Source: Naegleria gruberi (Eukaryota). Taken from it: a DNA stretch of 64,000 bases. Position numbers and translations under genes: made by a program. Shown here in pieces: positions 4,001 through 52,120 of this stretch; positions within the stretch are counted from its first letter, which is position 1, and every line of letters starts with the position of its first letter. The DNA is taken from NCBI GenBank assembly GCA_000004985.1, contig GG738845.1; one strand, 5' to 3'. A model generated the notes under the pieces. That model saw only the letters and a program-made list of their open reading frames with translations. It was not told the origin of the DNA and searched no databases.

Positions 4001-5412
4001 TTTTCTATTTGGAAATTGAACACAAATTCCCAAAGCCATCCACTCAACCATTATCTGTATCGAGTAACAATATTATTATCAATTCTAGTTTCCACAAGAT
4101 GATTCCAAGTAGTGCTGAATCATCAATGGATGATGATACAACCAGTGAAACTGGTTCAACAATGAGCAATGCTCAAACTATTGAAGATGAAGAAGATTTG
4201 ATGAATACACCAAGTAAATCAAATAGCACACTAAGACCTGCCAACGTTCCAAAACTTCAAATTTCTGCTGAACCACCAGTCAACTCTCCACAAGATTCTC
4301 TGCAACAGTTGAAAAAGATTGAAGAACTTGAATTACTCATCAAGACAATCACTGAAGATAGAGATGAGTGGAAGAACAAGTTTGAATCACTCTCGCAGGA
4401 ATTCGACACTCAAAAACAAAGTGTAACCTCATTGAGTGAGGAAAATACCGATTTGAAGGAGGCCAATGCAATGCTTTCATCCAAGATTGAAACTCTAAAT
4501 GATGAGATGGAACAATTGAGAGCACAAACCAGAAAGCAAGACTTTGACATCAATAAGAGAAGATCCAATAGTGTACCTATCAAGTACTTGGGTGATTCTC
4601 TCTCCCTTGATGACGAAGAGGATGAAAATGAAACTAATCACTCCCACGACAAGTTGACTTCACCTCGTTCAAGTACCTCCTCTGAGACTCAAAAGATTGA
4701 TCTTGCTGTCGTTCCAACTGTTAATCAAATTGTTGAACAGTATGAAAAGCAAATTTTAGAAATCAAGACTGAAAATGACAAACTCATTGAAGAAATCGAT
4801 CAAACCAAGTATCTTTTGGAGCAACTCAAGAATGAAGCCACAGAAGAAAAGCTAACTTTCACACAACAAATTCAAAACTTGAGGGCAACCATTGAGAATA
4901 TGACTAATAATGGTTATATTCCATATGTTGATTCTGATTTTGAAACTGATGAGGAATCAGCTCACTCACCAAGCTCTTCTCTATCATCTGAGAGATCCAA
5001 TTCAATTCCAAGATTGGACACTTCATCAACCAATAGCACTAAAGTTAAATCTTCAGGAATGTCACAAGGAGCACTCACCACTCAACGTTCCCGCATTCAG
5101 GAACATGTCGAAAAGTATGAACAATTATCTAGAAGTAATCTTGACTCTTCTCGTATTGCCAGGAACAAATCCAAGTTTGGACATGACATGTTGGACGACT
5201 CTGAAACACAAAGTATTGATAACAAGATTCTCAAAATTACCATTCAAACTGTACAATATCAATTACAAACAGAGAGACAACAACACGAGCTTAGCAAAAA
5301 GGCACAATCCTCTCTGAAGGATGAAGTTAACATTTTAAAGAAGAGACTTGATGAAGCTAATAAGGTGATTGAAGATATGAAAAAGATTGTCTTTACACAT
5401 TTTAAAGTTTAA
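1009..5412 (+). CDS. RhoGEF (Dbl-homology domain) protein with long coiled-coil C-terminus; 3 exons: 1009-1549, 1633-2480, 2533-5412
   Basis: Three consecutive ORFs (988-1575, 1614-2528, 2566-5412) are joined by canonical introns. Intron 1 is GTAAGT at 1550 to AG at 1631-1632, phase 1, 83 nt. Intron 2 is GTAAGT at 2481 to AG at 2531-2532, phase 0, 52 nt. Splicing keeps the frame. Exons 2 and 3 encode the DH-domain hallmarks EIISTEKSYVTDLKTIMDVF and LILPVQRIPKYQLLLRELLKYT. Downstream is a long region predicted to form a coiled coil. The ATG is at 1009; the track start at 988 is a TTG. Confidence 0.75.
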
Positions 5413-15733: not shown

Positions 15734-16515
15734 TATATAGTAGTGATTATGTTCCGACTGGGGCTGATGAATGTGATGATATTGTTTTCAGTGCAATTTT
15801 TACCGAAGGTGGTAAGGGTTTAAATATATTGACTATATTAATAATAACAATGTTTGGCAAATTACGTACCGAACAATTTTCATTTATTAAGCAAAGAAAC
15901 GCTTTTACGCATAATCAGCGAGGGCATTCCATCGAGAATTTATGAGGATTGGGATCTTCAAAAATTAGAGAAATATATTCTGAAATTGTTTCCAAATGAT
16001 GATTCAGTTCATGGAGAATTTCAAGTCGATCAACATGGCCATAAATATAAATATGCCTTCTTGTCCTCTCTTTAGCAGAAATACGTCTCAATATATTTGA
16101 TTTGGATATGGACTGGATTCAAAGAAACACTGAGAAAAAACCTTATTAAATTCTTGGATATTGAAACTGGTAAATAAACAATTTGTTGTGATCATAAATT
16201 GTTCAAGTTTTTCACTCAACTACACTTGAATTACGAGCGCATTACAGTTCAGAGCTAGTGATCATGTGCTTAATTTAATTTCGTTTGTGCTTTGCATTTT
16301 TCAAACCTAATTTCACTCTTGCCAACTTTTATTTAACGGGTGGCACCAATTGCTTGGAACTTCAGATTATGGTGCTATTGTACACTATTGGGAATTAGTT
16401 GCTTATGGGTTTTGTTGTTTTCCAAGAATTGCTTATTTGCCCAACTTTTACTAAACTTCATATTTATTTTCAATCAACCAATAAATCACAAGAAAAGAAC
16501 ACAGCTGATGTTTTC

Positions 16516-17316
16516 TTAAGGTCTTGCTGAAGTACCTGTACGATTTGGAGTGTCAGATGTCCATTCATTAACCTTTTCCACAACCTTATCTTTCATTTCT
16601 TTTGCTTTTTGTCCAGCAATACTTGCAGCTTCCTTAACTGTCTCTGTAACAGCCTCACCCATAGTTGTTGCCTTCTCTTTGCCTCTTTCCATGGCATCTG
16701 ACATGGTATCTTTTACATCTTCCATCTTGTCTTTGGCTTCTTCCTTATATTGAATAGTCTTGTCTCTGACTTTAGTGGTCATATCTTGTGTCTTGTCCAT
16801 TGCCTCATCTTTCATTTCCTTGGCCTTATTCATGGTTTGTTTGACATTCTTATTCATGTCAGATGCCTTTTCTTTAACATTTTCCTTGATATTCTCCTTG
16901 ACATTTCTACCCGTCTTTTTCAAATCAGCAACTCCTTCTTGTGCCTTTCTCATTGCATCACCAGTTTCTTGAGAGGCATTGAACATGTTGGCTCCTGGAC
17001 TTCTAGGAGTAACATTTTCCGACTTGTCCTTTAAAATCCCACCTGCATCATAAATTCCAGGGTTTGCAGATCCAACTTTTTCACTAGTGTTCAAGCCAGA
17101 GTTTGGTTTGTTAAAATAGGATTCTCTGGACATTTCCTCTTCATCGATGGAAACTGGCTTGATAGTTACCTGAGGTTTCTTGGAGGTATTCAATTTAGAT
17201 TCATTCTTCTCCAATGTTGAATCAATGTTGGTGTTCTTATTGATGAGACATGTGGAAAAGGAGCATCTATTGTAACGAGCCAAATACTTGGTGTTTTGTA
17301 AAACTATTCTTTTCAT
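16516..17316 (-). CDS. LEA-like (late-embryogenesis-abundant group 3-type) repeat protein, possible mitochondrial presequence
   Basis: 266-aa ORF. The C-terminal half is built of charged 11-mer-like repeats (KEKASDMNKNVKQTMNKAKEMKDEAMDKTQDMTTKVRDKTIQYKEEAKDKMEDVKD). The N-terminus is basic. Confidence 0.55.
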   Translation of the reverse strand: MKRIVLQNTKYLARYNRCSFSTCLINKNTNIDSTLEKNESKLNTSKKPQVTIKPVSIDEEEMSRESYFNKPNSGLNTSEKVGSANPGIYDAGGILKDKSENVTPRSPGANMFNASQETGDAMRKAQEGVADLKKTGRNVKENIKENVKEKASDMNKNVKQTMNKAKEMKDEAMDKTQDMTTKVRDKTIQYKEEAKDKMEDVKDTMSDAMERGKEKATTMGEAVTETVKEAASIAGQKAKEMKDKVVEKVNEWTSDTPNRTGTSARP

Positions 17317-17502
17317 TTTCTTTCTGACTGTATAATAAATATATTCAAATCATGATTATCTTTTTAAATCTAATTTGGTTTCTTTCTATTAATCACTTAT
17401 CCTTTTTAGTTTAGCTTGAAACCAATAGAATCTACTTCTGTACAGTTAACAAATTTATCAATACTAATTTGTTAATTTGACAAATATGGCCGAGTTTCCC
17501 AA

Positions 17503-18357
17503 TTAAATATCAGCATTGAGTCCTCCAAACATTTTCTCTTCCATCTTTTTCAACTTTTTCAATTCCTTTCTTTCCTTCTTTTCTTCCTTCTTTCTTTTCT
17601 TTTCCTCTTTTGAAAGTTTCTTCTTTGGTTCTTCATTTTCCTTCTTTTCAAGTTGAGTTGGTGATTTCACAACAGCTGAGCCTTCATCCTCTCCATCCTC
17701 TTCTTCATCACTAGAATCGTGTCTTCCATTTGATGGTGATCCCTCAAACATGGTCATCATTAGATACTTGTGAAGCCAATTAGGATCTCTCTTTTTCATG
17801 GCATCATGATACAAAGTCCACTCAAAATCATCATTAGCCTTCTTTACTTTCTTATAAATCATTCCATCCTTTTCCATAGTTTCATATTTCGGAACATTTT
17901 CCTTCTTATCTTGTTGATATCTGTTATTGAACCGACCAGTAGTAGATGATGAATTTCTTCCTCCATTCCTGCCAGAATTTTGTTGTTCTTCCGGATCTTC
18001 GACAATCTTCTTATAATAATTAGGAGCATGATCGACACATATTATTCTTCCACCCAATTCAATGCCATTCAAATTATCAATGGCCAATATTGTCGAGCGA
18101 ACATCTTCATAGGCAATAAAACAAAATCCCTTACTGGTCAATTCCTGTTCCTCACGAACCAAATCAATATCAACAATTTCTCCATATTGAGAGAAAACTG
18201 AGAGTAAATCACCTTCCGTCAATCGGAAATCCAAGCCTCCAATGTAGATGTAGGCTGTTCGATTTTTTTCCTGATGATGCCATGAAGATGGAGTGTTTGT
18301 ATAGCCCAGAGAAAGTTCCTTCTGATTCAACTCGTTGATTTGTTTTGCTCTTTTCAT
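17503..18357 (-). CDS. RRM-containing splicing factor, RBMX2/Snu17(Ist3)-like
   Basis: 284-aa ORF. It has one RRM whose RNP2 is IYIGGL and whose RNP1 is KGFCFIAYE, followed by a Lys/Glu-rich tail. This architecture matches RBMX2. Confidence 0.75.
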   Translation of the reverse strand: MKRAKQINELNQKELSLGYTNTPSSWHHQEKNRTAYIYIGGLDFRLTEGDLLSVFSQYGEIVDIDLVREEQELTSKGFCFIAYEDVRSTILAIDNLNGIELGGRIICVDHAPNYYKKIVEDPEEQQNSGRNGGRNSSSTTGRFNNRYQQDKKENVPKYETMEKDGMIYKKVKKANDDFEWTLYHDAMKKRDPNWLHKYLMMTMFEGSPSNGRHDSSDEEEDGEDEGSAVVKSPTQLEKKENEEPKKKLSKEEKKRKKEEKKERKELKKLKKMEEKMFGGLNADI

Positions 18358-18645
18358 TTTTTTTCTAAAGAATAAAAGAATATAATTCTTGTTGAATATG
18401 ACATGAAAACCTCTATTTACTCTGACTTGTAAATATGATGTTTCAAAAGTTATTACAAGGCATCGACACTACAATTCAACAAGTATATTCCTGATACTAA
18501 TTTTGACATCTTCTACTAGTCCTCTCAATTCAGAAAATTTAGTATTAATCTTAAAATCATTAAAGTTCTCTGACTTAGTATAGAGTTTATATATTATACA
18601 AAGGTTGATTAATGATATCCTCAATCATTATTTATTATTATTATT

Positions 18646-21934: not shown

Positions 21935-22025
21935 TGATGAGTGTGGGATTTGAACCCACGCCCTTGCGGAACACGGTATTAATCATACCTTAACGTGTCG
22001 TCTTAGACCACTCGACCAACTCACC
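21935..22025 (-). tRNA. tRNA-Leu (anticodon AAG) with an 11-nt intron 3' of position 37
   Basis: Sense strand: GGTGAGTTGGTCGAGTGGTCTAAGACGACACGTTAAGG[TATGATTAATA]CCGTGTTCCGCAAGGGCGTGGGTTCAAATCCCACACTCATCA. The acceptor stem is GGTGAGT/ACTCATC with discriminator A73. The D-arm (GTC/GAC, loop GAGTGGTCTAA) is type II. The anticodon stem ACACG/CGTGT carries loop TTAAGG..C. It has a long variable arm and a GTGGG-TTCAAAT-CCCAC T-arm. Four T's follow immediately, a Pol III terminator. Confidence 0.8.
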
Positions 22026-29182: not shown

Positions 29183-29273
29183 TGATGAGTGTGGGATTTG
29201 AACCCACGCCCTTGCGGAACACGGTATTAATCATACCTTAACGTGTCGTCTTAGACCACTCGACCAACTCACC
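29183..29273 (-). tRNA. tRNA-Leu (AAG) with 11-nt intron, identical copy 2
   Basis: The 91-nt sequence is identical to the copy at 21935-22025. A TTTT terminator follows, and the same ~45-bp conserved 5' flank is present. Confidence 0.8.
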
Positions 29274-29607: not shown

Positions 29608-30649
29608 TTATTGAATATGATTTGTTTCTTCTTGAAATATATCGTTTTCAATTGATCTCAAATCAAGAATGGTTTGATTTTCATACTTTTGATTGAAATT
29701 TCTCCAATGAGAATTCATCATTGTTGATAAATATTTGGAACTCGAAAAATTATTTGAAATGGTAAAGTCTTTCTCTTCAAATCGAATGATAACTTGCTCT
29801 ATTAGTGGTATTTCATTTTCATTTGTTGTCAAATTATTGACATCGCAAGTCTTGAATGGTTCAATTCCAAATTCATCATATGGTTCAATAAATTCAAAAT
29901 CATTCACTACTTTTGACAGCCAATATAGTGCTAATTTCAAATCCATTTCAACACCCTCTCCTTTTTTGTAACAACAACCAAGATTAAATTGACCATCCTT
30001 GCACCCTTTTTCAGCAGCTTTGAAATACCACTCAAATGCTTTAACATCGTCTTGTTCTACTCCTATACCATCATCAAAGCAAACGCCAATATTTAATTGA
30101 GCTCTTGCATAACCCTTTTCAGCAGCTCTTAAATACCATTCAAATGCTTTAACATCGTCTTGCTCAACTCCTGCACCTTTTCTATAAATACATCCAATCA
30201 CAAACTGTGCATCTGTATCACCCTTTTCAGCAGCTTTTAAATACCATTCAAATGCTTTAACATAGTCTTGTTGAACGCCTTTCCCCTCCTCAAAAAATGC
30301 TCCAACATTAAATTGAGCAGTTGTATCACCCTTTTCAGCAGCTTTTAAAGTCCATCGTTCTACACAAGTGAAAAGACAAACTGCATAATATCGATACCAA
30401 CACAGCAACACAGGACCACTGATGGAGGAATTTATACAATTTTTTATTAGAAGAATAGGAAATCAATGCTGTTTGTTGATTTCTCTTCCAACCTTGATTG
30501 TATGGTGCATCTAAAATGACATAAATATTGGTTAAACCACAAAGTTCAAGACTGTCATTAATCGGATCTCTGGATGTGTAAGCGAGGATGAAGATAATCT
30601 TCTGATCATTTCCAGAAGGTATTGTTAACATCATGTTGTGGTGTAGCAC
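29608..30649 (-). CDS. Sel1-like repeat (SLR/TPR-like) protein; reading frame shifts once near an A6/T6 homopolymer (~30440-30445)
   Basis: Six or more Sel1 repeats (KAFEWYLKAAEKGDTDAQFVIGCIYRKGAGVEQD) lie in ORF 29608-30411. The N-terminal part (MLTIPSGNDQKIIFILAYTSRDPINDSLELCGLTNIYVILDAPYNQGWKRNQQ) is in ORF 30335-30649, one frame off. Both frames are open across a ~120-nt overlap that contains a T6 run. Confidence 0.55.
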
Positions 30650-31293: not shown

Positions 31294-34200
31294 TTATTCT
31301 GCTGGTTTGATGAGAATACCTTCAAAGAAAGAATTGGAAAGGATTTGCTTGGCACTTGGTCTCTTACTGGCATCCTTCTCCAGCAAAGATAAACAAATAT
31401 TAATCAATGTTGATGAATAATTTCCTGATTTTTCCATTTCCTTTGTTAATTTATCAATGGCTTCTTCCTCTCTATTCGAAATAAACATGTGACTGACAGC
31501 TGTGGTTGTGTCTTTGGTCATGATTTGATAGATAGCCACTCCCAATGAATAGATATCGGTGTTGAAACTGTACTTTCCTCCAGTTGCGAGTTCTAAAGAC
31601 ATGTATAAAGGAGTGCCAGCATAAGATCTGTCAACTGAACCCATACTTGCTTTGGCTAGACCAAAATCGGCTAATACAACATGAATATTATCGGAATCAA
31701 GGTCTCTAATAAAAATATTAGATGGTTTGACATCTCTGTGAATAACTTTCAGTTTTGTGTGAACAAAATTCAAAGCATCACAAATCTGATAAATAATCTG
31801 CTTTACCTTTCTTTCACTACACCATTCCGTATCGTTCATTAGCTTGAGTAAATCACCATTCGAATAGAAATCCATATCAATACACAATAATTGAGAATTA
31901 TCCACAAAAAAGTCATTAACTTTGATAATATTTTCATGATCAATGTTCATCAATTGAGAACCTTCTTTCATCATTCCATTCAATTCCTCAGCAGAAGAGT
32001 ATTTGATGATTTTAAGAGCTTTTGTTTTGTTTTGCTTGGTATCAAATGCTTTAAATACTGACCCAAAGGCACCTTCTCCAATTTTAACTAAATCCTTATA
32101 ACGAGAAAGTGGATTAAATGCATTTTGTGAGTCTGAACTCTTGATAGAGGAAAAACTCATGAGTGGTGTGAAATGTGCACTTTCTTGTGATGGGAAATCA
32201 CTATGAGAGGGTATTGTTACTTCCTCAATTAGTTCAGTTTCCTCTGGTTGTTCTTGTTGGTGTAGGGTTTGTTTCTTCTTTTGTAACACCACCACAACAG
32301 CAACCACTACAATGACCACAATAACAATTACCACCACAATAAATAAAGCGACTAGTATGCCAACAATTAGTCCAATAGTTGCTCCATCATCCACAGGAAT
32401 ATTCTTATTGCCTTGACTTGATTTTGGTGATGCAGTAACGGAAATTGTTGGAGTTATTACAACGTTATTATCAATAACTGAAAAGGTTGTAAAATGTTTG
32501 GTGGCACAAGTAATTTCATAGATATTTGCTGATTTTGACTTGATAATTGTTTGAATACCCAAGGTTGACCAAGTATTGGAGTTCGTATCATAGTAATTAC
32601 ATGATAGATTAGAAGATTTTGTTTCAATATTATCAAAAACAATGTCTACTGTTTGATTTAGATTTGCAACTGAGACTTGTGCCAAGTTATCTATTTTTTG
32701 GATTGAAAGACTTATTATTTTGCTTACAATATTCGAATCTGTCTTCTTAGTCGTTGATTTGAAAATAAAACATGATCTCTTGGAAGACAAATCCACTTGA
32801 GAAGCAAAATTTGATGGGAATTTCACAGTAACATCTGAAATTTGATTTTGTTTTGAGTTAAGTTCTTGAGAGGAGAACAGGAATTGTTTTCTTACTGTGG
32901 TTTCTCCATCAGTTGACTCCACAACATTTTGAGTTATTGAACCTGGGCCTGATAAAAGAATTTCAGTCATTTGAAGAGATGTTTTGAATTGATCAAATAA
33001 TATCAAATTCTGTGATTGACCAATTTCAACTAATTCATTCAACTCACTCAAATGAACTAAATCTATCATATAAGGAAGCGTCTTCTCACTATAATAAGGT
33101 AAATTACTTGTAATACTATTGACTGACCATGAGATCCATTCTTTCAACTCATCTAATTTATCTATTTTCTTATCAGAAAGGTATAAAAGTTTGTAAGTTT
33201 TGTGGAGTGGAGGAATGATGAGTGAAATTAGTTTATCATCCACATTGTAACCAACAGATCTAATGTCAGATAGAACTGATAAAATATCAATCAAGGTTGC
33301 TCTAACACTTGAAAGTGATGTCAGTTGGGATGATTGGGATTCCAAATAGGTCAACAAGAAATTCAATTCTTGTAACATTTCAAGACCTGAAGTTCTATTT
33401 CCTTTCATATAAGAATATTCGTCTTTGAAGTAATTCAACGGATCAGATGTTGGATTGGAAACACTTGTTAAATTTCTCATGAATTCTCCAACGTTTCCAT
33501 TTCTGCTTAAAACTTTCACCTTAATGGAAGAATTTGGAAGAATGGTAGAGAATTTCATGGCTACTTTCTTTTTCAATGTATTTGAAATGATGAATTTACG
33601 TTTCAAATCCATATTAAATTCCATAAGAATCATTAATCGATTCTCAATCATGTGATCACAAGAAATTGTTAAATAACTATTGGAAAGTAAATTAATATCA
33701 CAAGAAACTCTTGGTGAGCGTTCAGAGGTAAACGAGTAAGAGTTTGAAGCAACTACATCAACTCCATTCAGAGCTTGAATCTCGAAAATATAATTCTCCT
33801 CTTGATAGAACAAATCACCACTCATCCAGATGGAAGTTCTCAAATAATTATCACTTTGAGCTAAAATATTTGATTTAAGAGAATCACTCGATTGTAATCT
33901 TCCTTGACTAACCTTCCAGTTATAGTTTGAAAAGTTTCCAGTTATTTCTGCCTCTATGTAACATCCAGAATAGCTCAATGAATTCCAAGCTTTTGTAATC
34001 TTCACAGTGATTGGTTTTGATTTGGTTATTTCGAAGCGACCAACAACTGATCCACTTCCCAAATTATCATCTGAAGTACTAGCTTGAATTTGATAAACTC
34101 CAGGAGTAAGAGAACCTGCAGACAATTTAGCAATATTGGAATTTACACTGAATACCGATTGAGGAATTGTTGTTAATTTTGTGTCATTTTCAACCCTGAA

Positions 34201-37200
34201 AAGACTCCAATAGAAAGAAAGTTTTGAAAGTCTGAAGGAGGATTCGTTTTCAGCTGTAACCTCAATGGTGAAACTGTCATTTTGCGAATTCTTTGTGTCA
34301 ACCCCAACGAATGACAATTTAAGATCCACGCTTGTGAATGGTTTGTACTGGAGAGTGACAGTGATATCTCTGGAAGTGGTGGAGTCTTTGGCAGAACACA
34401 ACAAAGAAGCTTCACTCTCTTCCAAATTGGCATCTGAAAAGACTCTTATCATATGCTTATTCTTGAGAACATTGGTAAAGACATTTCCATATAAAGAAAT
34501 AGATTGGGATGGAGCAAAAGTTTCAATTTCTAGAATACATTCAAATCCAGAACATGAAATTATTCTAGTATCCAAAATATCATTGAAAAATTCAATGTTT
34601 GGACCTGTGGAGGTGATTTTCAAATCTAGTTTTGAACTTGATTTTGAATTGTTCATCCAGTTGTTGGTATTTAAAACTAAACTAATAGATGATGTCGATG
34701 ACAAATAGGTTTTTGGTATGATCAAAATATCTCTATTCAATCCAATAAATTCTCCAGTTGACCCACAAGTTGGACATGTCCATTTATAGTCAATTGATTT
34801 GGCAAACCTGTAATTGGAATCAATACTTGGTCTAACAATCAGATCAGAAGAAGAGGGAATAGTGGAATATAGTTTGGTTACCTTGATACTTGTGGAAGCG
34901 TAAGTTTTCGAATTGGATTTTGCTTCTTCCATACTAACATAAACTGAAATATTCGAATTTTTCAACTTGAGAATATCTCCAGTTTCTAAAATAAAGTTAT
35001 AACCTAAATAGATTGTTAAATTAGTGTTCCACACACAGATAGGTTGTTCGCCCAATTTCAATAGAGAAGTAGAATCAAATAAACTTTCACATTTTCCATT
35101 AAACATCTCAAAGGATTCATCCCTTGCAATAATGGTTTGAACTAGTGGCGCTAGAGTAATGGATTGATAATTCATACTGAAAACGTAATTTTCACATTCC
35201 TTTCCAATATATCCATTCTTACAAGTACATGTATGTGGACCTGAACAATTACCATTTCCAGAACAAACACCTGGATCAATTTCAACCTTTTGATAACACT
35301 TGAAATATTCGCATTTAGAACCAGCATATCCATTTGAACATTGGCAGACGTCCTTATCTACACATTGACCTTTCAAATTTGAACAAACACTTGCATTATT
35401 ACTATCGATTCCATAACAAGAAGTCAAGTTACAATTATTCCCAAACCATCCAGACTGACATCTACAATCATTAATGCCTACACATGTTCCCTTTCCATTA
35501 CAAACAGCAGTCTTATCAGAGGTTATTCCATAGCAATATGGATAATCACATCTCAAACCTCCGTATCCATCAGTACAGATACAATTTCCAGGACCATTAC
35601 AAGTACCATTATTGGAACATGCCTTTTTTCCATAACAATCGAATAATTCACATTGATTTCCATAGTAACCTTCAATACACGTGCAGTTATTGGGAATTCC
35701 ACAAACTCCATTACCACTACAGACACTTCTATTATTACTCATTATACCATAACAATATGTGATATTGCAATTACTTCCAGTCCAGGAATTTGCTGTACAA
35801 ACACAAGAGTTTGGAAGATCACAATATCCTTTTCCTGCACATACACCAGTTGAGTTTGCTTTAACTCCAAAACAAATTGGGATACATTCAGTTCTTTCTT
35901 GATTGAAATCATATCCATCCTCACAATAGGGCGTCAGTGATCTTATTGAATTATCTACTATATAATAAATCTTATTAGTTTCAAAGTCAGCTGTCAATTT
36001 TACAATTGAAGTACTAGCAATGGAATATCGTTCACCATTCTTTGGATATCTCCAAATATTATTTTCAGTGCTTGATATATAAACTATTGTATCACCGTTT
36101 GGCATAATTGCTAAATCCTTTGTCGAAGACTCTGTTTTATAGACAGTCTCAACATAATTATCACTTCTGAGAGTTCTTATGAGATTGTTGCCATTGTCTA
36201 TATAGTAAATTTGATCAGTCCCATTTGCAAAGGCAGCACCAACACAATAAAACATGTATGTTTCATTAAGCGGTTGTACTATTGGTAGATCTGGACCTTT
36301 TACAGTATATTGAGTACCAATTAATGAACTGGCTCTTCCTTTGTAAATTGTTTCTACAGTAGAATAGGCCCAAAAACTATGGATAAGCCTGTCATCAGAT
36401 GAAACTTTCAAATACTCAAGGGTATAATCAATATGTGTATGACGAGATGGTACATCTTCACCATATCCTATAAGTGTTCTTCTTCTTCCATCTGTGAGAT
36501 TGTGAAATGAAATTCCTTCGTTTTCCATAACAAGCAAATTACCATCTGGTAATAGAGCCAGATCCATTGGATAAATCATCTTTGCTTCTGTTGAGAGTAA
36601 GCCAGGAATTGGCTTCTTTCCATACAAATCAGAGTTTCCAGCAACAATGGTTATCTGATTATTCTCAAATTTCTTAACGAATCCATTAAAGTTATTTTCA
36701 GTTATATAAATAGCATCATTAATGACGATTGCCTTATTAGGGCAAGATAAACCACTTATTGGCAAAGTTGTGGTTGCACCTCCAATCACAGTTTGTTGAA
36801 TAGAATTTGCTTGACAATTTGCAACATAAATGGTATCATTGGCATGCACATATAAACCAGCTTTTGATGAAATTCCGCTCAAAACCGTTACCAAAGTGTT
36901 CGAAACTAGGTGCCTTAACCTTCCACCTTCAATAAACACGATACTTCCATTCGAAAGTACTCCAATAGCTGATGGCTCATTGATAGAACTCAAAGCTGGG
37001 ACAAATTCACCACTATATTCATTTTGACCATTACCAGCGATTGTGATTATTGTGCCATTAGTCAAAATTTTTCTAATTCTGTAATTCATACTGTCTGCTA
37101 TATAAATTTCATTATTTGAGGATAATGCAATTCCTTTCGAATAAATTGATGCCTCAGTAGCCAAAATACCATCTCCATTATTTCCTGAAACATAGTTTCC

Positions 37201-38781
37201 TGCAATTGTGTAATATCTTTGTTCACTCCAAACAAACTTTCGAATAACTTGGTTCATGGTATCAGAAACTAAGAAATCACCATTAGGATAAAGTGCAAAC
37301 GAAGGCGTTGAATAAATGGCATCACCAGCAACAATTTCTAAAGTTCCATTCTTGTGAACTTTGTAAATGTATCTACTATAGTGAAAATATAAGAGATCTC
37401 CATAAGCAGCAATTCGTTTAGGATAATCGAAGGAATATGTGCCGAATTTACAATCTGAAAGTTTAGATCCTTCTGAAACAATCTTACTTGAGTAAGGAGA
37501 GGATAATAAGTAAACATTTCCATCGGTTGCTATCTTTCTAATAGATTTTGAATCAGAGAAAAAAAGTTCTCTTGTTTTTGGATTATACACAACATCGAGT
37601 GGTGAATCTAAATTGGCTTTGCTAGGTTTCACACCATCTCCATAATAGGATGTACTTCCATCAGGAGCACCAACAACTTTAGAATAATTACCTTTCGAAA
37701 GTGAAACTTTTACAATTGCATTATTGGACGAATCTGCAATGTATAGCTCATCATTTTGGTTGATTGTTGCATAGTATGGATTTTTCAAGGAAAGAGAGCT
37801 ATTTTCATTGCCTGCAATTGTTGTGATAATACTAGTGTTCGAAATCAGACGAATCTTATTATTCCCCGCATCACAAATAACTAATTCATTCTTATAATTC
37901 ATGAAAACACACATTGGTGCAGTGAGTAAGGCATTAATCGCCAAACCTCCATCACCAATAAATCCAGAAGTCCCATTTCCTGCCATAGTAACGACACTTC
38001 CGTTTTGAAAAATCTTTCGAATACAATTATTTCCACTATCTGCAACATAGAGCTCACTTTCGTCTAAACTAAATGAAAGCCCTGAAGGTCTATTGAATAG
38101 AGCACTCAATCTTGTTTGATTATTGTCAAAACCACTCACACCATCTACACCAGCATAGTTATCAATAATTCCAGTGCTTGAATTAATTACTCTGATGACA
38201 TGCCTGTCAAAGTCGGTAAAGAAAATGTCACCTCTTTTGTTCATAATAATATCTAGTGGAGCAGAAAGGGTGGAATTAGTGGCAATTTGACCATTTCCAT
38301 AACCTCCTACCTGTCCATTACCTGCAATATTAATAACTTGTTTAGTTTCGAATATATATTTCTTAATCGTGTGAGTACCCAATTCTGTAAAGTAAATATC
38401 CATATTCTTATCCAGTAAAATTCTTGTAGGATTGACAATAGAAGGATTATCAAGTGAAGTAATAATACCATCGTTATCAATTATTCTAATCTTGGTATTA
38501 GAAGAATCTGCTATTGCCATGAAGAAAGGTTTCCTATTCTTGCCGCTGTCCCACATGGCAAATCCAGTTGGGAAATTCAACACAGACTTCTCAGCAGGTA
38601 CATTATCACCCAACAAATTTGTACCTACAACAAGTTCATTTCTATAAAGTATTCTAGCGGAAAGTGTTGTGTGTACAAGAATTGAAATTAGAACCAACAA
38701 AACTACCAGCACCGTTCGAAACATTTTTTGAATGAGTTGAAATGTACCACACCACCAATGTTTTTTTTTGTCTGTTGGCAA
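31294..38781 (-). CDS. Giant receptor-like Ser/Thr protein kinase: signal peptide, NHL-repeat beta-propeller region, tenascin-type EGF/Cys-rich repeats, Ser/Thr-rich stalk, one TM helix, C-terminal kinase domain
   Basis: Uninterrupted 2495-aa ORF with the likely ATG at 38724 (MFRTVLVVLLVLISILV). NHL-type repeats include YVADSGNNCIRKI, YIADSSNNAIVKV and YIADSMNYRIRKI. The EGF-like module CYGI(M/T/D)S...C(S/N)G.G.C.....C.C..G(Y/W).G..C recurs about 7 times. The TM segment is IGLIVGILVALFIVVVIVIVVIVVVAVVVVL. The kinase domain runs from subdomain I (IGEGAFGSVFKA) through VAIK-like ALKII, HRDVKPSN and DFGLAK to APE-like GTPLYMSLE. Confidence 0.8.
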   Translation of the reverse strand: MPTDKKKHWWCGTFQLIQKMFRTVLVVLLVLISILVHTTLSARILYRNELVVGTNLLGDNVPAEKSVLNFPTGFAMWDSGKNRKPFFMAIADSSNTKIRIIDNDGIITSLDNPSIVNPTRILLDKNMDIYFTELGTHTIKKYIFETKQVINIAGNGQVGGYGNGQIATNSTLSAPLDIIMNKRGDIFFTDFDRHVIRVINSSTGIIDNYAGVDGVSGFDNNQTRLSALFNRPSGLSFSLDESELYVADSGNNCIRKIFQNGSVVTMAGNGTSGFIGDGGLAINALLTAPMCVFMNYKNELVICDAGNNKIRLISNTSIITTIAGNENSSLSLKNPYYATINQNDELYIADSSNNAIVKVSLSKGNYSKVVGAPDGSTSYYGDGVKPSKANLDSPLDVVYNPKTRELFFSDSKSIRKIATDGNVYLLSSPYSSKIVSEGSKLSDCKFGTYSFDYPKRIAAYGDLLYFHYSRYIYKVHKNGTLEIVAGDAIYSTPSFALYPNGDFLVSDTMNQVIRKFVWSEQRYYTIAGNYVSGNNGDGILATEASIYSKGIALSSNNEIYIADSMNYRIRKILTNGTIITIAGNGQNEYSGEFVPALSSINEPSAIGVLSNGSIVFIEGGRLRHLVSNTLVTVLSGISSKAGLYVHANDTIYVANCQANSIQQTVIGGATTTLPISGLSCPNKAIVINDAIYITENNFNGFVKKFENNQITIVAGNSDLYGKKPIPGLLSTEAKMIYPMDLALLPDGNLLVMENEGISFHNLTDGRRRTLIGYGEDVPSRHTHIDYTLEYLKVSSDDRLIHSFWAYSTVETIYKGRASSLIGTQYTVKGPDLPIVQPLNETYMFYCVGAAFANGTDQIYYIDNGNNLIRTLRSDNYVETVYKTESSTKDLAIMPNGDTIVYISSTENNIWRYPKNGERYSIASTSIVKLTADFETNKIYYIVDNSIRSLTPYCEDGYDFNQERTECIPICFGVKANSTGVCAGKGYCDLPNSCVCTANSWTGSNCNITYCYGIMSNNRSVCSGNGVCGIPNNCTCIEGYYGNQCELFDCYGKKACSNNGTCNGPGNCICTDGYGGLRCDYPYCYGITSDKTAVCNGKGTCVGINDCRCQSGWFGNNCNLTSCYGIDSNNASVCSNLKGQCVDKDVCQCSNGYAGSKCEYFKCYQKVEIDPGVCSGNGNCSGPHTCTCKNGYIGKECENYVFSMNYQSITLAPLVQTIIARDESFEMFNGKCESLFDSTSLLKLGEQPICVWNTNLTIYLGYNFILETGDILKLKNSNISVYVSMEEAKSNSKTYASTSIKVTKLYSTIPSSSDLIVRPSIDSNYRFAKSIDYKWTCPTCGSTGEFIGLNRDILIIPKTYLSSTSSISLVLNTNNWMNNSKSSSKLDLKITSTGPNIEFFNDILDTRIISCSGFECILEIETFAPSQSISLYGNVFTNVLKNKHMIRVFSDANLEESEASLLCSAKDSTTSRDITVTLQYKPFTSVDLKLSFVGVDTKNSQNDSFTIEVTAENESSFRLSKLSFYWSLFRVENDTKLTTIPQSVFSVNSNIAKLSAGSLTPGVYQIQASTSDDNLGSGSVVGRFEITKSKPITVKITKAWNSLSYSGCYIEAEITGNFSNYNWKVSQGRLQSSDSLKSNILAQSDNYLRTSIWMSGDLFYQEENYIFEIQALNGVDVVASNSYSFTSERSPRVSCDINLLSNSYLTISCDHMIENRLMILMEFNMDLKRKFIISNTLKKKVAMKFSTILPNSSIKVKVLSRNGNVGEFMRNLTSVSNPTSDPLNYFKDEYSYMKGNRTSGLEMLQELNFLLTYLESQSSQLTSLSSVRATLIDILSVLSDIRSVGYNVDDKLISLIIPPLHKTYKLLYLSDKKIDKLDELKEWISWSVNSITSNLPYYSEKTLPYMIDLVHLSELNELVEIGQSQNLILFDQFKTSLQMTEILLSGPGSITQNVVESTDGETTVRKQFLFSSQELNSKQNQISDVTVKFPSNFASQVDLSSKRSCFIFKSTTKKTDSNIVSKIISLSIQKIDNLAQVSVANLNQTVDIVFDNIETKSSNLSCNYYDTNSNTWSTLGIQTIIKSKSANIYEITCATKHFTTFSVIDNNVVITPTISVTASPKSSQGNKNIPVDDGATIGLIVGILVALFIVVVIVIVVIVVVAVVVVLQKKKQTLHQQEQPEETELIEEVTIPSHSDFPSQESAHFTPLMSFSSIKSSDSQNAFNPLSRYKDLVKIGEGAFGSVFKAFDTKQNKTKALKIIKYSSAEELNGMMKEGSQLMNIDHENIIKVNDFFVDNSQLLCIDMDFYSNGDLLKLMNDTEWCSERKVKQIIYQICDALNFVHTKLKVIHRDVKPSNIFIRDLDSDNIHVVLADFGLAKASMGSVDRSYAGTPLYMSLELATGGKYSFNTDIYSLGVAIYQIMTKDTTTAVSHMFISNREEEAIDKLTKEMEKSGNYSSTLINICLSLLEKDASKRPSAKQILSNSFFEGILIKPAE

Positions 38782-39730
38782 GACGGCCGTCTTCTTAGTT
38801 TGTCCTGATCTACCATTAGTTGATACTGAAAGCTCAACATGTCATGTGAGAAAACTTAATTGGAATTACAAAAAGGCATTTTAAACATAAATATAATTTG
38901 ATATGAGAGTTGACAGCAACACTGTTACAGATCTCTTCTTGCCAAGTCCAATATTAAATATTCTACATGAAATATTTATTGCTTACCTTTAGATGATTAC
39001 CATAGGATAATTGTGGTTAGATAGGTAATTTTATATCTCATCTTCCACCAATAGAAGATGGTACAGGGTATCAAGTAATACAGGTGAGGTACCAAGTATA
39101 TACCAAGTATTTAGTTGGATTGAAAAAGAATCCTCCATAGGAACCTATTGTCGATAAACTTGGTATAATAAACTTTACAATAACAGTTGCGCACCAGACT
39201 AGTCTTCATGATTACAATATGTTTGATTGAAATTTACACAAAAGCAATACAGTATCTGTTATTCTTATTGCTTTTGTTGAAAGCAAAGTAATTGTGTAAG
39301 AGTTAATAATCTTGACAGGAACTGCACCCACACAAAACAATCTTTGATAGCAGGTTGTAGTTTCTTCATCAACAACTGCTGTGCATCACGAAAACAACTG
39401 GGCTATTAGGCAGACTGTGAGGATAACAAATCCATTTACTGTGTTTATGGTAAAACCATTACCGTTCCTTATTTCATTTTAAAATTTGGTGTCCATCAAA
39501 GCAGATTCCAGTAGGCTCAGTATCATTCTACAGCTGAGAAAATAACTTTCAAAAACAGTAACATTCCTTCCTTTTCAAATATCCAAATACTGTAAACAGA
39601 TAAAAATGGACCATAGGTAAAGACCAGTAGCTTTCGCCCTTTCACAACCAAGTAACCAAGCAACATGTTCCACATATCTGTCGATGCACAGACGCACGGC
39701 TTATCTGTGAAAAACCAAACAAGAAAAAAG

Positions 39731-40843
39731 ATGCAATCTTCTACTTTAGCTATTCTTTTGCTTTTCTGTTTGGTTGGTTGTGTTACTTGCGCCAGTAATA
39801 CGACTGTAAGAGCTTACATCCTCGATATTCAATCAGAATATGAAAAGATAGACACTCTTGGGCAACGTCTCACAAAGGCGATTGATATGTTAAATTTTGC
39901 AAACATCAACTCGACCTTAATTCCTCAAATTGTTCAAACAAGAGCAGCTCAATTGAAAAAATTAACAACTGCTAGAAGCATGCTCGCTCTTGAAATGTCT
40001 GTATTGAGCAATCAATGTAATATGTTTGGAGGAGATGACTGCACCGTTCCTACATGTTCATATCATGGAAAATATATAAGTAATAATCAAACAGCTAAAT
40101 GTGTATGTGATCAAGATTGGACTGGGTTAAACTGTTCTGTTCCAATATGTTATTCCATTCCTGCAACAAACAGCTCTGTGTGCTCAGGCTCTGGTACATG
40201 CATCTCCAATAATACATGTCTCTATCCAACTCCATCAAACAACCTTGTTGTTGACACCATTAGAATGTATGCGAATGGAACTGTTGCAAGAAGTTGTAAA
40301 GAATATCTCTCAACATTTAATGAGAGTGGACTCTATTGGATCAAACCAGATAATAACTATCCAAGTTTTGTAGTTCATTGTGAGCAGAAATTCAATGGTG
40401 GAGGTTGGATTTTAATTTCATCAAGAAACAAATCAATTCCTCCAAAATATTCTGATGTTGTAAAGCCACTCAATGATGGTTCGTCAATGGCAGATGATAA
40501 ATGGGCCATTTTCAGAAATGCCAATCCTGACTTAATGTGGAAAGATTCAGATCGTGATGAGTATAGTGTAACAAATATTTTGGGATGGAAAAATGGAGCA
40601 AATTGTAAAGTATTAACAACAAAACTAACTGATCTGTTGCTTGCTCATAAGGAGAACACTGGCTGTACAATGTCAGGAAGTGATTATTGCTTGCTTGGTG
40701 ATACTAGATTCGGTATGACTCCTTGTGCATCATGTGAGGCAACATACACAGCACCAACTTTGATTTGGAAAGAGTGGAAGTTCAAAAGCTATTTTTGGAA
40801 TGATTCTCCTGAACTATCAAAAGCAGATATTTATTTAAGATAA
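39731..40843 (+). CDS. Secreted protein with tenascin-type EGF-like repeats and a C-terminal fibrinogen-related domain (FReD)
   Basis: The ORF runs from 39665 and the probable ATG is at 39731 (MQSSTLAILLLFCLVGCVTCA, a signal peptide). EGF-like modules are CSYHGKY...CVCDQDWTGLNC and CSGSGTCISNNTC. The FReD core SCKEYLSTFNESGLYWIKPDNNYPSFVVHCEQKFNGGGWILISSR matches the fibrinogen C-domain pattern (compare vertebrate SCKEI...SG.Y.I.PDG...F.VYCDM...GGGWTV). Confidence 0.6.
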   Translation: MQSSTLAILLLFCLVGCVTCASNTTVRAYILDIQSEYEKIDTLGQRLTKAIDMLNFANINSTLIPQIVQTRAAQLKKLTTARSMLALEMSVLSNQCNMFGGDDCTVPTCSYHGKYISNNQTAKCVCDQDWTGLNCSVPICYSIPATNSSVCSGSGTCISNNTCLYPTPSNNLVVDTIRMYANGTVARSCKEYLSTFNESGLYWIKPDNNYPSFVVHCEQKFNGGGWILISSRNKSIPPKYSDVVKPLNDGSSMADDKWAIFRNANPDLMWKDSDRDEYSVTNILGWKNGANCKVLTTKLTDLLLAHKENTGCTMSGSDYCLLGDTRFGMTPCASCEATYTAPTLIWKEWKFKSYFWNDSPELSKADIYLR

Positions 40844-50567: not shown

Positions 50568-50658
50568 TGATGAGTGTGGGATTTGAACCCACGCCCTTGC
50601 GGAACACGGTATTAATCATACCTTAACGTGTCGTCTTAGACCACTCGACCAACTCACC
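50568..50658 (-). tRNA. tRNA-Leu (AAG) with 11-nt intron, identical copy 3; adjacent 20-bp partial duplicate of its 3' end at ~50541-50560
   Basis: The 91-nt sequence is identical to the other two copies. After its TTTT terminator, a second copy of CCCACACTCAT reappears, followed by a T8 run. Confidence 0.8.
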
Positions 50659-50950: not shown

Positions 50951-52120
50951 ATGCAAGCTCAAGTCAATTTTAATCAAATCAAGTCATCAATCTTTGTTCC
51001 TTTGGATAAGAAGAAATCTGATCAACATTGTTCTCTCCTTTTCAGCAATCTAATTGGTACTGCTTTACAATTCAGAGACAACAAGTACACATACTGTGGA
51101 TCATATGATCTTTCACAGTGGTTGGTTCTCTGCTTTAATACTATGGTCAAACAAGATGAGAAGTTATTTGCAGATATTGTTATCCCATTGGTAGCATATA
51201 TTTCGATTGTTGACGATGCATGTGATGAGAAGATTACAGACATCTCTATTGAAGAGATGAAATCACATTGCATGATATTTAGAGGTGAATCTGTACAAGC
51301 AACAAACCCAGCTCACAAGATGGGAAAACTCGTCTATAATTTGATCAAAGACAGTAGATTCGATGGAATTAGAGGAAAGATTTTAGAATTCTTGACCGTT
51401 GGAACCAATCTCATAGAGAAGGCAAAGAATGAATGCGAAAATAATGGACTTGTCTCTGAAGAAACCTTGCTTGCCTTTTTGAAAGAAAGAAGAGTCGACT
51501 CAATGTCCTCTCTTTTCTTTACTATTAATAATTTCTTTAATGACATTCCAGAGATCGATACATGCGATCACGTCATTGAATATAACCACTTGGCATGTGA
51601 CATTATCAGTTTGTTCAATGATGTTGCCTCAATCGCTAAAGATGCCAAGAAGGTTGTTAACAATTATATCATTTTGAATAAGGGCTTGAAAGAGGGCATG
51701 TCATACAGCCAACTTAAACAACTCCCAGTTGAAGCCTTTGATTCATCCCTCAATGAAGTATTGGAATTAATCAAAGAGAAATTGCAACAAATGGAAACAA
51801 TCAAATCCTCCAACCCAGACAACTCCAAACAATTTGAATCCATCGATGAAGTGATGAAAGGATATTGTACTTGGTGCATCATTTCAAAGAGATTCCAACA
51901 TTCTAACCACCTCCTTCCTGAATACCATTCCAAAAAATCAGTACTCAAGGCAATGATTGAAACTGTGTTAATGCCATTCCTCAAACCTTGGTCTGATAAT
52001 GATATGCTCACCTATCTTGATGATATTGAAAATTCCATGAAGAAATCCTCCTTTTCAAGCATATTGGACTCATTTGCCTACTCTATCGGAAAATTTTGCT
52101 CTTTTTCAATCACTAATTAA
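50951..52120 (+). CDS. Class I terpene synthase (microbial-type, as found in dictyostelid TPS families)
   Basis: 389-aa ORF. The Asp-rich motif DDxxDE appears in SIVDDACDE. The NSE/DTE-like second metal-binding motif is NDVASIAKD, about 140 aa downstream. The fold is all-helical. Confidence 0.7.
   Translation: MQAQVNFNQIKSSIFVPLDKKKSDQHCSLLFSNLIGTALQFRDNKYTYCGSYDLSQWLVLCFNTMVKQDEKLFADIVIPLVAYISIVDDACDEKITDISIEEMKSHCMIFRGESVQATNPAHKMGKLVYNLIKDSRFDGIRGKILEFLTVGTNLIEKAKNECENNGLVSEETLLAFLKERRVDSMSSLFFTINNFFNDIPEIDTCDHVIEYNHLACDIISLFNDVASIAKDAKKVVNNYIILNKGLKEGMSYSQLKQLPVEAFDSSLNEVLELIKEKLQQMETIKSSNPDNSKQFESIDEVMKGYCTWCIISKRFQHSNHLLPEYHSKKSVLKAMIETVLMPFLKPWSDNDMLTYLDDIENSMKKSSFSSILDSFAYSIGKFCSFSITN

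Follow-up and report, generated by a model that had tools for sequence, protein, structure and literature searches.

We describe here a receptor gene on the minus strand of a 64,000-nucleotide stretch of DNA from Naegleria gruberi (contig GG738845.1; this whole stretch is called the window below). Its product is probably a type I single-pass receptor Ser/Thr kinase with an adhesion-type ectodomain attached through a GAIN domain—a domain known to typify G-protein-coupled receptors of the adhesion class (aGPCRs) and polycystins. From the outside inwards, the likely order of modules is NHL propellers, six EGF repeats, about five Ig/FN3-like beta-sandwiches, the GAIN domain, one transmembrane (TM) helix, a juxtamembrane segment, and the kinase. 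Its similarity to public proteins places the receptor in a small Naegleria family, as the third one from N. gruberi; a paralogue in this family is a pseudokinase. An earlier note on this DNA had proposed a receptor-like kinase with an NHL and EGF ectodomain; the domains, the kinase and the single gene hold up, while the taxon, the claim of uniqueness and the proposed stalk do not. The GAIN module, with its GPCR proteolysis site (GPS), is the most unusual feature of the receptor, and that note had overlooked it along with the beta-sandwich array.

The receptor gene and its features

The open reading frame (ORF) occupies 31294..38781 on the minus strand and runs without interruption for 2495 amino acids (aa) from a TTG; the first ATG of the coding sequence lies at 38724-38722 and the stop at 31294-31296, giving a protein of 2476 aa. 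Residue numbers are counted throughout from the Met encoded at 38724. The gene is continuous, as had been claimed for the 7.5-kb ORF, and the kinase does not belong to a separate downstream gene—no stop codon intervenes, and the same fusion is repeated in three Naegleria homologues. The features of the receptor are listed here with the evidence for each.

31294..38724, minus strand: complete receptor coding sequence, single exon, 2476 aa plus stop (ORF and ATG position; collinearity with three Naegleria homologues)
38656..38724, minus strand: signal-peptide-like N-terminus, residues 1-23, MFRTVLVVLLVLISILVHTTLSA (hydropathy peak 2.55; presumed cleavage site)
35947..38553, minus strand: NHL beta-propeller repeats, residues ~58-926, at least 13 blades (Pfam TEN_NHL, NHL; blade profile; alignment to N. 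lovaniensis NHL-EGF proteins)
35194..35874, minus strand: six tandem teneurin/tenascin-type EGF repeats, residues 951-1177 (Pfam EGF_2, EGF_Teneurin; Cys-pattern scan)
33469..35109, minus strand: about five predicted tandem Ig/FN3-like beta-sandwiches, residues ~1206-1752 (all-beta AlphaFold2 model; Foldseek)
32953..33441, minus strand: predicted GAIN subdomain A, helical bundle, residues ~1762-1924 (AlphaFold2 model)
32467..32925, minus strand: predicted GAIN subdomain B, residues ~1934-2086, a beta-sandwich that contains the GPS motif (AlphaFold2 model; profile search)
32488..32496, minus strand: putative autoproteolysis triad H2077-F2078/T2079, followed by the last beta-strand, TTFSVID (alignment with ADGRG1 and ADGRL3; conservation; model)
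32284..32376, minus strand: single TM helix, residues ~2117-2147 (hydropathy peak 4.12; sole internal hydrophobic segment)
31324..32100, minus strand: Ser/Thr kinase domain, residues 2209-2467, RD (arginine-aspartate) type (Pfam Pkinase, E 2.5e-52; motif alignment)

The protein begins with MFRTVLVVLLVLISILVHTTLSA, and a hydropathy scan finds two hydrophobic segments only: this signal-like N-terminus and the helix at ~2117-2147. The single TM helix that had been claimed is thus borne out; the claimed signal peptide has the expected hydrophobic character (peak 2.55), with its cleavage site only presumed. A Pfam check suggested in the earlier note was run on the whole protein and matched all three kinds of domain: Pkinase over the full length of the profile (E 2.5e-52), TEN_NHL (E 3.9e-20) and NHL (E 3.4e-18), and EGF_2 (E 1.1e-14) and EGF_Teneurin (E 1.5e-12). 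The EGF_TEN model scored 63.1 bits, slightly under its 65-bit cut-off.

A GAIN domain next to the membrane

The residues that lead up to the TM helix, CNYYDTNSNTWSTLGIQ...CATKHFTTFSVID, resemble a GPS. In a Pfam search with the receptor sub-sequence, the GPS model (PF01825) aligns over profile positions 2-45 of 45 with 19.8 bits (E 1.2e-3), short of its 22.5-bit gathering score; two relatives, P0124 (25.0 bits) and P0129 (25.7 bits), pass the model. These relatives come from an exhaustive phmmer search in which the 921-aa region between the EGF repeats and the membrane was compared with 1.84 billion representative proteins, and in which nine proteins matched. The last 150 residues of the query match the GPS-passing proteins P0124, P0125 and P0129: P0124 is a small EGF-GPS-TM protein (E 1e-11 to the receptor), and P0125 is a catfish aGPCR-like protein in which a 7tm_2 domain accompanies several GPS motifs (E 2e-9).

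Profile and structure comparisons point the same way. A profile built from six family sequences (profile A2) was searched against all PDB sequences at E <= 10 and returned ten entries, nine of which are aGPCR GAIN domains (ADGRG1 at 5.7e-5, ADGRL3 at 3e-4, ADGRF1, and ADGRE5) and one a designed helical protein (E 1.9). The alignments span ~130 residues of subdomain B and place the receptor triad over the HLT of ADGRG1 and ADGRL3. A single-sequence AlphaFold2 (AF2) prediction of residues ~1642-2116 gave a predicted local distance difference test score (pLDDT) of 36; a model of the region from the EGF repeats to the membrane, built from a nine-sequence alignment, was used instead. In that model the GAIN part forms a helical bundle followed by a beta-sandwich (pLDDT ~65-89), and H-F-T is located in the turn between the last two strands. 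Foldseek, run against the PDB, ranks the crystal structure of the BAI3 GAIN and HormR domains second (E 1.7e-7).

Most of what is expected of a GAIN-family module is in place. In the canonical triad, H-X-S/T, the base is His and the nucleophile is Ser/Thr (PMC13062082). Each of the six aligned family members has this triad; the GAIN region is 21-38% identical among them overall, and the triad is conserved nonetheless. The putative site reads HF/T in the receptor and in P0129, whereas the three full-length homologues have HL/S (both N. gruberi paralogues) or HL/T (N. fowleri, as also P0124). Necessary as it is, the triad does not suffice: a Gly-Cys motif and an aromatic residue by which the His is oriented matter too (PMC13062082). 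In the Naegleria family the aromatic is an invariant Tyr (Phe in aGPCRs), and the Gly-Cys motif likewise keeps its Gly without exception. Beyond the site, the strand T-x-F-x-V-I is similar to the tethered-agonist consensus TxFAVLM (PMC12716839), and 37 residues separate T2079 from the start of the TM helix. In the adhesion receptors, which have a seven-transmembrane (7TM) domain, the GAIN domain alone suffices for cleavage; the GPR56 GAIN domain still self-cleaves on the single foreign TM helix of PDGFR (PMC3321182). From the model and the profile matches we conclude that residues ~1762-2086 are likely to form a GAIN domain. Within the 64-kb window, no other ORF carries a GAIN domain or belongs to the receptor family.

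The NHL, EGF and beta-sandwich modules

The outermost part of the ectodomain consists of NHL repeats, as had been claimed. A blade hidden Markov model trained on the receptor itself finds at least 13 NHL-like blades across residues 58-926; this length would accommodate about three six-bladed propellers. In a search with the whole protein, bacterial NHL proteins give the best scores for the NHL part and swamp the result, and the top eukaryotic matches are NHL-EGF proteins of N. lovaniensis and Acrasis kona that lack a kinase. The repeats that follow are of the claimed EGF/tenascin type by Pfam; their number had been put at about seven, and the Cys-pattern scan counts six complete repeats (residues 951-1177).

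The gene next to the receptor gene, transcribed divergently from it (39665-40843, plus strand), has a 392-aa product that looks secreted and carries EGF repeats of the teneurin type, the EGF type being common to both products. The neighbour is weakly matched, too, by the fibrinogen C-terminal domain over the first ~50 residues of that domain (Pfam, 24.7 bits), and against the PDB it matches fibrinogen gamma and angiopoietin-1 (E ~1.5e-3).

Between the EGF repeats and the membrane the earlier note had placed a Ser/Thr-rich stalk. Only the ~35 residues before the TM helix are stalk-like, and the remainder of the 921-aa stretch is predicted to be folded. Ahead of the GAIN domain, the AF2 model of residues ~1206-1752 is all-beta (pLDDT 50-87), and its Foldseek matches are the tandem Ig/FN3 ectodomains of contactin, DSCAM and KIT. 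No Pfam family matched these residues, and a profile of them found no meaningful match among PDB sequences; the array is 25-27% identical to that of the Naegleria homologues. We assign it as Ig/FN3-like modules solely because of the predicted fold, and with lower confidence than the GAIN domain. A REJ domain was also considered for residues 1206-1752. No Pfam REJ match was obtained even at E <= 10, hmmsearch gave weak scores for two N. lovaniensis proteins (P0035, 11.6 bits; P0081, 6.5 bits), and hhalign against the REJ-bearing P0081 gave a probability of 3.9%; the relationship is not established, and we rejected this assignment.

The kinase and the juxtamembrane segment

A complete eukaryotic protein kinase had been claimed for the C-terminus, and besides the Pkinase match every catalytic motif is found: GEGAFGS, ALK (K2238), MMKEG, HRDVKPSN, DFG, and GTPLYMSLE. 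The kinase is of the RD type with Ser/Thr in the activation loop, and as judged from these motifs it appears to be catalytically complete. Its nearest solved structures, none of them a tyrosine kinase-like (TKL) or Tyr kinase, are NEK1 (E 1e-28), CaMK1, and STE20-type kinases including STK24; the best 60 PDB matches comprise NEK, CaMK, STE20, ULK and CDPK kinases, and IRAK, RAF and TGFbR are absent from them. The Pkinase model scores 178 bits against 114 bits for PK_Tyr_Ser-Thr—a margin of 64 bits. These comparisons indicate that the kinase is not of the TKL type. Between the TM helix and the kinase lies a juxtamembrane segment of ~60 aa with a conserved FNPLSRY motif, which reads FNPHLRY and FDPMSRY in two homologues.

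A small Naegleria family

Three of the nine phmmer matches span the whole query at ~30% identity (E 1e-35 to 1e-43). They are NAEGRDRAFT_70317 (XP_002674574, P0122) and NAEGRDRAFT_49308 (XP_002676784, P0130) of N. gruberi, and FDP41_013523 (XP_044565022) of N. fowleri. By Pfam all three carry NHL, teneurin-type EGF and Pkinase domains, and they are collinear with the receptor through the beta-sandwiches, GAIN domain, TM helix, juxtamembrane motif and kinase; the order of modules is identical from the signal peptide on. Over the TM and kinase part, identity to NAEGRDRAFT_70317 and to that of N. fowleri is 52-53%. In the ectodomain the receptor and the full-length homologues share only 25-29% identity, and they have different numbers of NHL blades and of EGF repeats. 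In NAEGRDRAFT_49308, HGN replaces HRD and the Gly loop is broken, so this paralogue is a pseudokinase. The model of NAEGRDRAFT_70317 stops abruptly within the kinase, which looks like a truncation of the gene model.

The receptor architecture thus belongs to a small Naegleria family that evolves fast and that databases already contain in the form of predicted proteins without a name. The earlier note had found no described family for it; the proteins are indeed uncharacterised, but the same architecture is already public in N. gruberi and N. fowleri and is not unique. Word-indexed homologue searches found no relatives, either with the 921-aa middle region or with the GAIN alignment. The receptor itself has no exact entry in protein collections of ~15 billion sequences, though the products of neighbouring genes are present; a search of 5.8 billion clusters gave no near-identical match, and the exhaustive search of the 1.84 billion representatives found nothing above ~31% identity over the whole query. 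Exact look-ups likewise gave no entry for a neighbouring 1160-aa ORF, the ArfGAP ORF or the actin-like ORF. It seems that the public gene set lacks an annotation for this paralogue or has the locus in a problematic, poorly assembled region. In the literature searched, we found no paper that links a GAIN domain to a protein kinase or describes these Naegleria proteins.

A related sequence comes from a public metagenome assembly (ENA ERZ929261; run ERR1078381, PRJEB11402) in which Naegleria DNA (L003) is 99.2% identical to window positions 16479-18594. P0124 is from the same sample (L001). This small EGF-GPS-TM protein, which has no kinase, shares 38% identity with the receptor in GAIN subdomain B, and it is probably a short paralogue from a closely related strain.

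How the receptor might signal

The reading that we favour, as more likely than not, is an adhesion-type receptor kinase that is cleaved in its GAIN domain. A stronger form, in which GAIN autoproteolysis gates a single-pass Ser/Thr kinase in Naegleria and makes the protein a mechanosensitive adhesion receptor kinase, we regard as possible rather than probable. In the favoured scheme, the GAIN domain would cleave itself between F2078 and T2079 during maturation, and the adhesive N-terminal fragment of ~2050 aa would keep a non-covalent grip on the TTFSVID strand, which belongs to the membrane-bound kinase fragment. Once the NHL/EGF part binds a ligand on a surface (the substratum, prey, or another cell) and a pulling force acts as well, the N-terminal fragment would be removed or loosened; the clustering or orientation of the C-terminal fragment would change, allowing trans-phosphorylation of the activation loop. 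The analysis itself covers the domains and their order, the conserved motifs and the predicted fold; the cleavage, the dependence on force, the ligand, and the switching of the kinase we infer.

Several points weigh against the proposal. The GPS score of the receptor (19.8 bits) is below the Pfam gathering score of 22.5 bits, and the AF2 model is of moderate confidence (mean pLDDT 62, predicted template modelling score 0.32, from an alignment of nine sequences). There is one GPS Cys pair only (C2042, C2073) against two disulfides in animal GAIN domains; in the Gly-Cys motif the family has Ile, Leu or Val in place of the Cys; and the P1 residue of the receptor site is Phe instead of the usual Leu. 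An intact triad is also no guarantee, as BAI2 carries HLS yet remains uncleaved (PMC13062082). The coupling step is speculative—it is without precedent because there is no 7TM pocket to receive a tethered agonist.

Three of these points, namely the second GPS disulfide and the Gly-Cys cysteine that are missing from the family and the Phe at P1 of the receptor copy, would equally suit a GAIN fold that is never cleaved and serves as a rigid juxtamembrane stalk, with signalling by ligand-induced dimerisation and trans-phosphorylation; clustering is, after all, the general mode of single-pass RD kinases. We consider such an inert spacer rather unlikely. The His and Ser/Thr of the triad are kept in six of six members despite 21-38% identity, which argues for selection on the catalytic residues beyond the fold, and the strand after the site retains its T-x-F-x-V pattern. 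Cleavage might, on the other hand, serve only to free the adhesive NHL/EGF ectodomain under shear, with the kinase merely reporting the event or regulating turnover. The GAIN-like (MAIN) domains of bacteria and archaea are autoproteolytic and have been proposed to act in force-released surface proteins (bioRxiv 10.64898/2026.05.12.724683), and P0124, found in a metagenome that holds Naegleria DNA 99.2% identical to the window, has the EGF-GPS-TM build without a kinase. A pure shedding device is nevertheless improbable; the kinase is intact in three of the four full-length members and the juxtamembrane motif is conserved, which speaks for signalling as a selected function. Shedding also overlaps with the receptor kinase that we favour and does not exclude it.

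A last alternative is that the gene is an artefact or dead—a chimeric ORF, an assembly error, or a pseudogene—and here the lack of any identical or near-identical protein among 15 billion sequences, although neighbouring genes are present, has to be acknowledged. The gene itself makes this explanation very hard to credit: 2476 stop-free codons in DNA of 34% G+C are impossible by chance, and the domains are all complete, their order matching that of three homologues annotated independently. The catalytic and GPS residues are intact, and a signal-like start and a single TM helix are present.

Other features of the window

The earlier note had taken the DNA for an amoebozoan-type genome. Three ORFs in the window are exact matches to proteins of N. 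gruberi NEG-M, which places it in Heterolobosea (Discoba) instead:

17503-18357: ORF, XP_002683592.1 of N. gruberi NEG-M (exact match)
16516-17316: ORF, NAEGRDRAFT_56551 of N. gruberi NEG-M (exact match)
50951-52120, plus strand: ORF, NAEGRDRAFT_61605 of N. gruberi NEG-M (exact match)

NAEGRDRAFT_61605 matches the C-terminal domain of microbial-type terpene synthases (PF19086, E 1.9e-6, 28.2 bits). The other genes of the window are ordinary eukaryotic nuclear genes, with members of the actin family, a mitochondrial carrier, ArfGAP, RabGAP-TBC/TLDc, MFS, Prp31, RGS, PPR and Sel1 proteins. Directly downstream of the receptor gene lies a Sel1-repeat ORF (29608-30411, minus strand; Pfam E 5e-43); in the program-made list it starts with GTG, so its true 5' exon is probably elsewhere. 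Elsewhere in the window (1614-2528 and 2566-5412, plus strand), a 948-aa ORF opens with a RhoGEF domain of which only the final third is present (profile positions 129-180 of 180), and the gene must therefore extend upstream across an intron. This shows that introns occur in the window, unlike in the intronless receptor gene.

Three identical 91-nt tRNA genes lie on the minus strand at 21935-22025, 29183-29273 and 50568-50658 (Rfam, 47.4 bits each). ARAGORN named no anticodon for them, and a long variable arm or an intron is therefore probable; the same ~45-nt flank precedes each gene, so the copies were dispersed together with upstream sequence.

The 5' flank of the receptor gene contains one further element:

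38780..38793, no strand: 14-bp perfect palindrome AAGACGGCCGTCTT, 55 nt upstream of the receptor ATG

The palindrome is present where the earlier note had seen it, at a distance then given as ~57 bp, and is without significance. Perfect 14-bp palindromes number 16 in the window against 8.1 +/- 2.9 in shuffled sequences, so that a single upstream copy carries no weight, and we rejected a regulatory role as unsupported.

Significance

In Discoba, the Naegleria receptor joins a GAIN domain whose triad is intact to a Ser/Thr kinase with one TM helix; the domain type is otherwise known from animal aGPCRs and polycystins. The origin of the GAIN-7TM module has been placed in stem holozoans, the GAIN domain itself being older (PMC12716839, PMC3321182). 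The Naegleria GAIN-kinase family offers a concrete, testable case of this domain coupled to a different output, and poses the question of whether a kinase can be switched by self-cleavage and departure of the N-terminal fragment when there is no tethered-agonist pocket. If the gated-kinase reading is true, GAIN-dependent signalling would be feasible without such a pocket, and the domain would be an ancient, output-agnostic force or shedding switch; one eukaryotic lineage would have joined it to kinases, and the 7TM receptors of holozoans would have acquired it only later.

With this family N. gruberi, a free-living species related to the pathogen N. fowleri, gains a class of receptor kinases outside the TKL group; N. 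fowleri itself has an orthologue-like copy. The GAIN domain is under the Pfam threshold across the Naegleria GAIN-kinase family, and the receptor copy is missing from protein sets; both are therefore invisible to standard annotation. The finding is relevant to the fields of adhesion GPCRs, GAIN domains, and receptor evolution.

Comparison with known systems

The closest parallels to the receptor GAIN domain, by profile and by structure, are the aGPCRs—ADGRE5/CD97, ADGRL/latrophilin, ADGRG1/GPR56, and ADGRB3/BAI3. As in the receptor, their adhesive ectodomains end in a GAIN domain with H-X-S/T ahead of the membrane, and the receptor strand after the site resembles their Stachel. The receptor differs in having one TM helix and a Ser/Thr kinase, with no 7TM/G-protein coupling and no tethered-agonist pocket, and in having one GPS disulfide against two and no HormR domain. 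Pfam finds no 7tm_2 match in the whole protein. Membership of the aGPCRs (class B2) was ruled out, given one internal hydrophobic segment and a kinase after the GAIN domain.

Polycystin-1 and PKDREJ share with the receptor a build that is not that of a GPCR: a long beta-rich ectodomain, with the GAIN/GPS module adjoining the membrane. In contrast to these proteins, the receptor has no detectable REJ domain, no PLAT, 11-TM or channel part, and a kinase as its output; a polycystin was ruled out, as no REJ, PLAT or multi-pass region was found.

The ectodomain had been described as teneurin-style, and the NHL and EGF domain types (TEN_NHL, EGF_Teneurin/EGF_TEN) are indeed shared with teneurins, as is the position of the EGF repeats on the membrane side of the NHL propellers. 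The likeness ends there. The receptor is type I and not type II, it has no YD shell, FN-plug, TTR or Tox-GHH (Pfam finds no RHS/YD or Tox-GHH match in the whole protein), its NHL part scores best against bacterial NHL proteins, and it carries an intracellular kinase.

In general plan, the receptor is similar to the Dictyostelium GDT/DRK kinases, the plant receptor-like kinases (RLK/Pelle), and the TGF-beta receptors, which have a signal peptide, an ectodomain, one TM helix, and a C-terminal eukaryotic protein kinase (PMC1420674). These kinases all belong to the TKL group, whereas that of the receptor is nearest to NEK1, CaMK1 and STE20-type kinases. No GAIN domain is known from any of the three groups.

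Microbial MAIN proteins resemble the receptor in that an autoproteolytic GAIN-type module tethers adhesion domains, some of shared types, without a 7TM part (bioRxiv 10.64898/2026.05.12.724683). They are prokaryotic and lack an intracellular signalling domain, and their sequences are distant from eukaryotic GAIN domains; the receptor GAIN domain, unlike theirs, is detectably related to animal GPS motifs.

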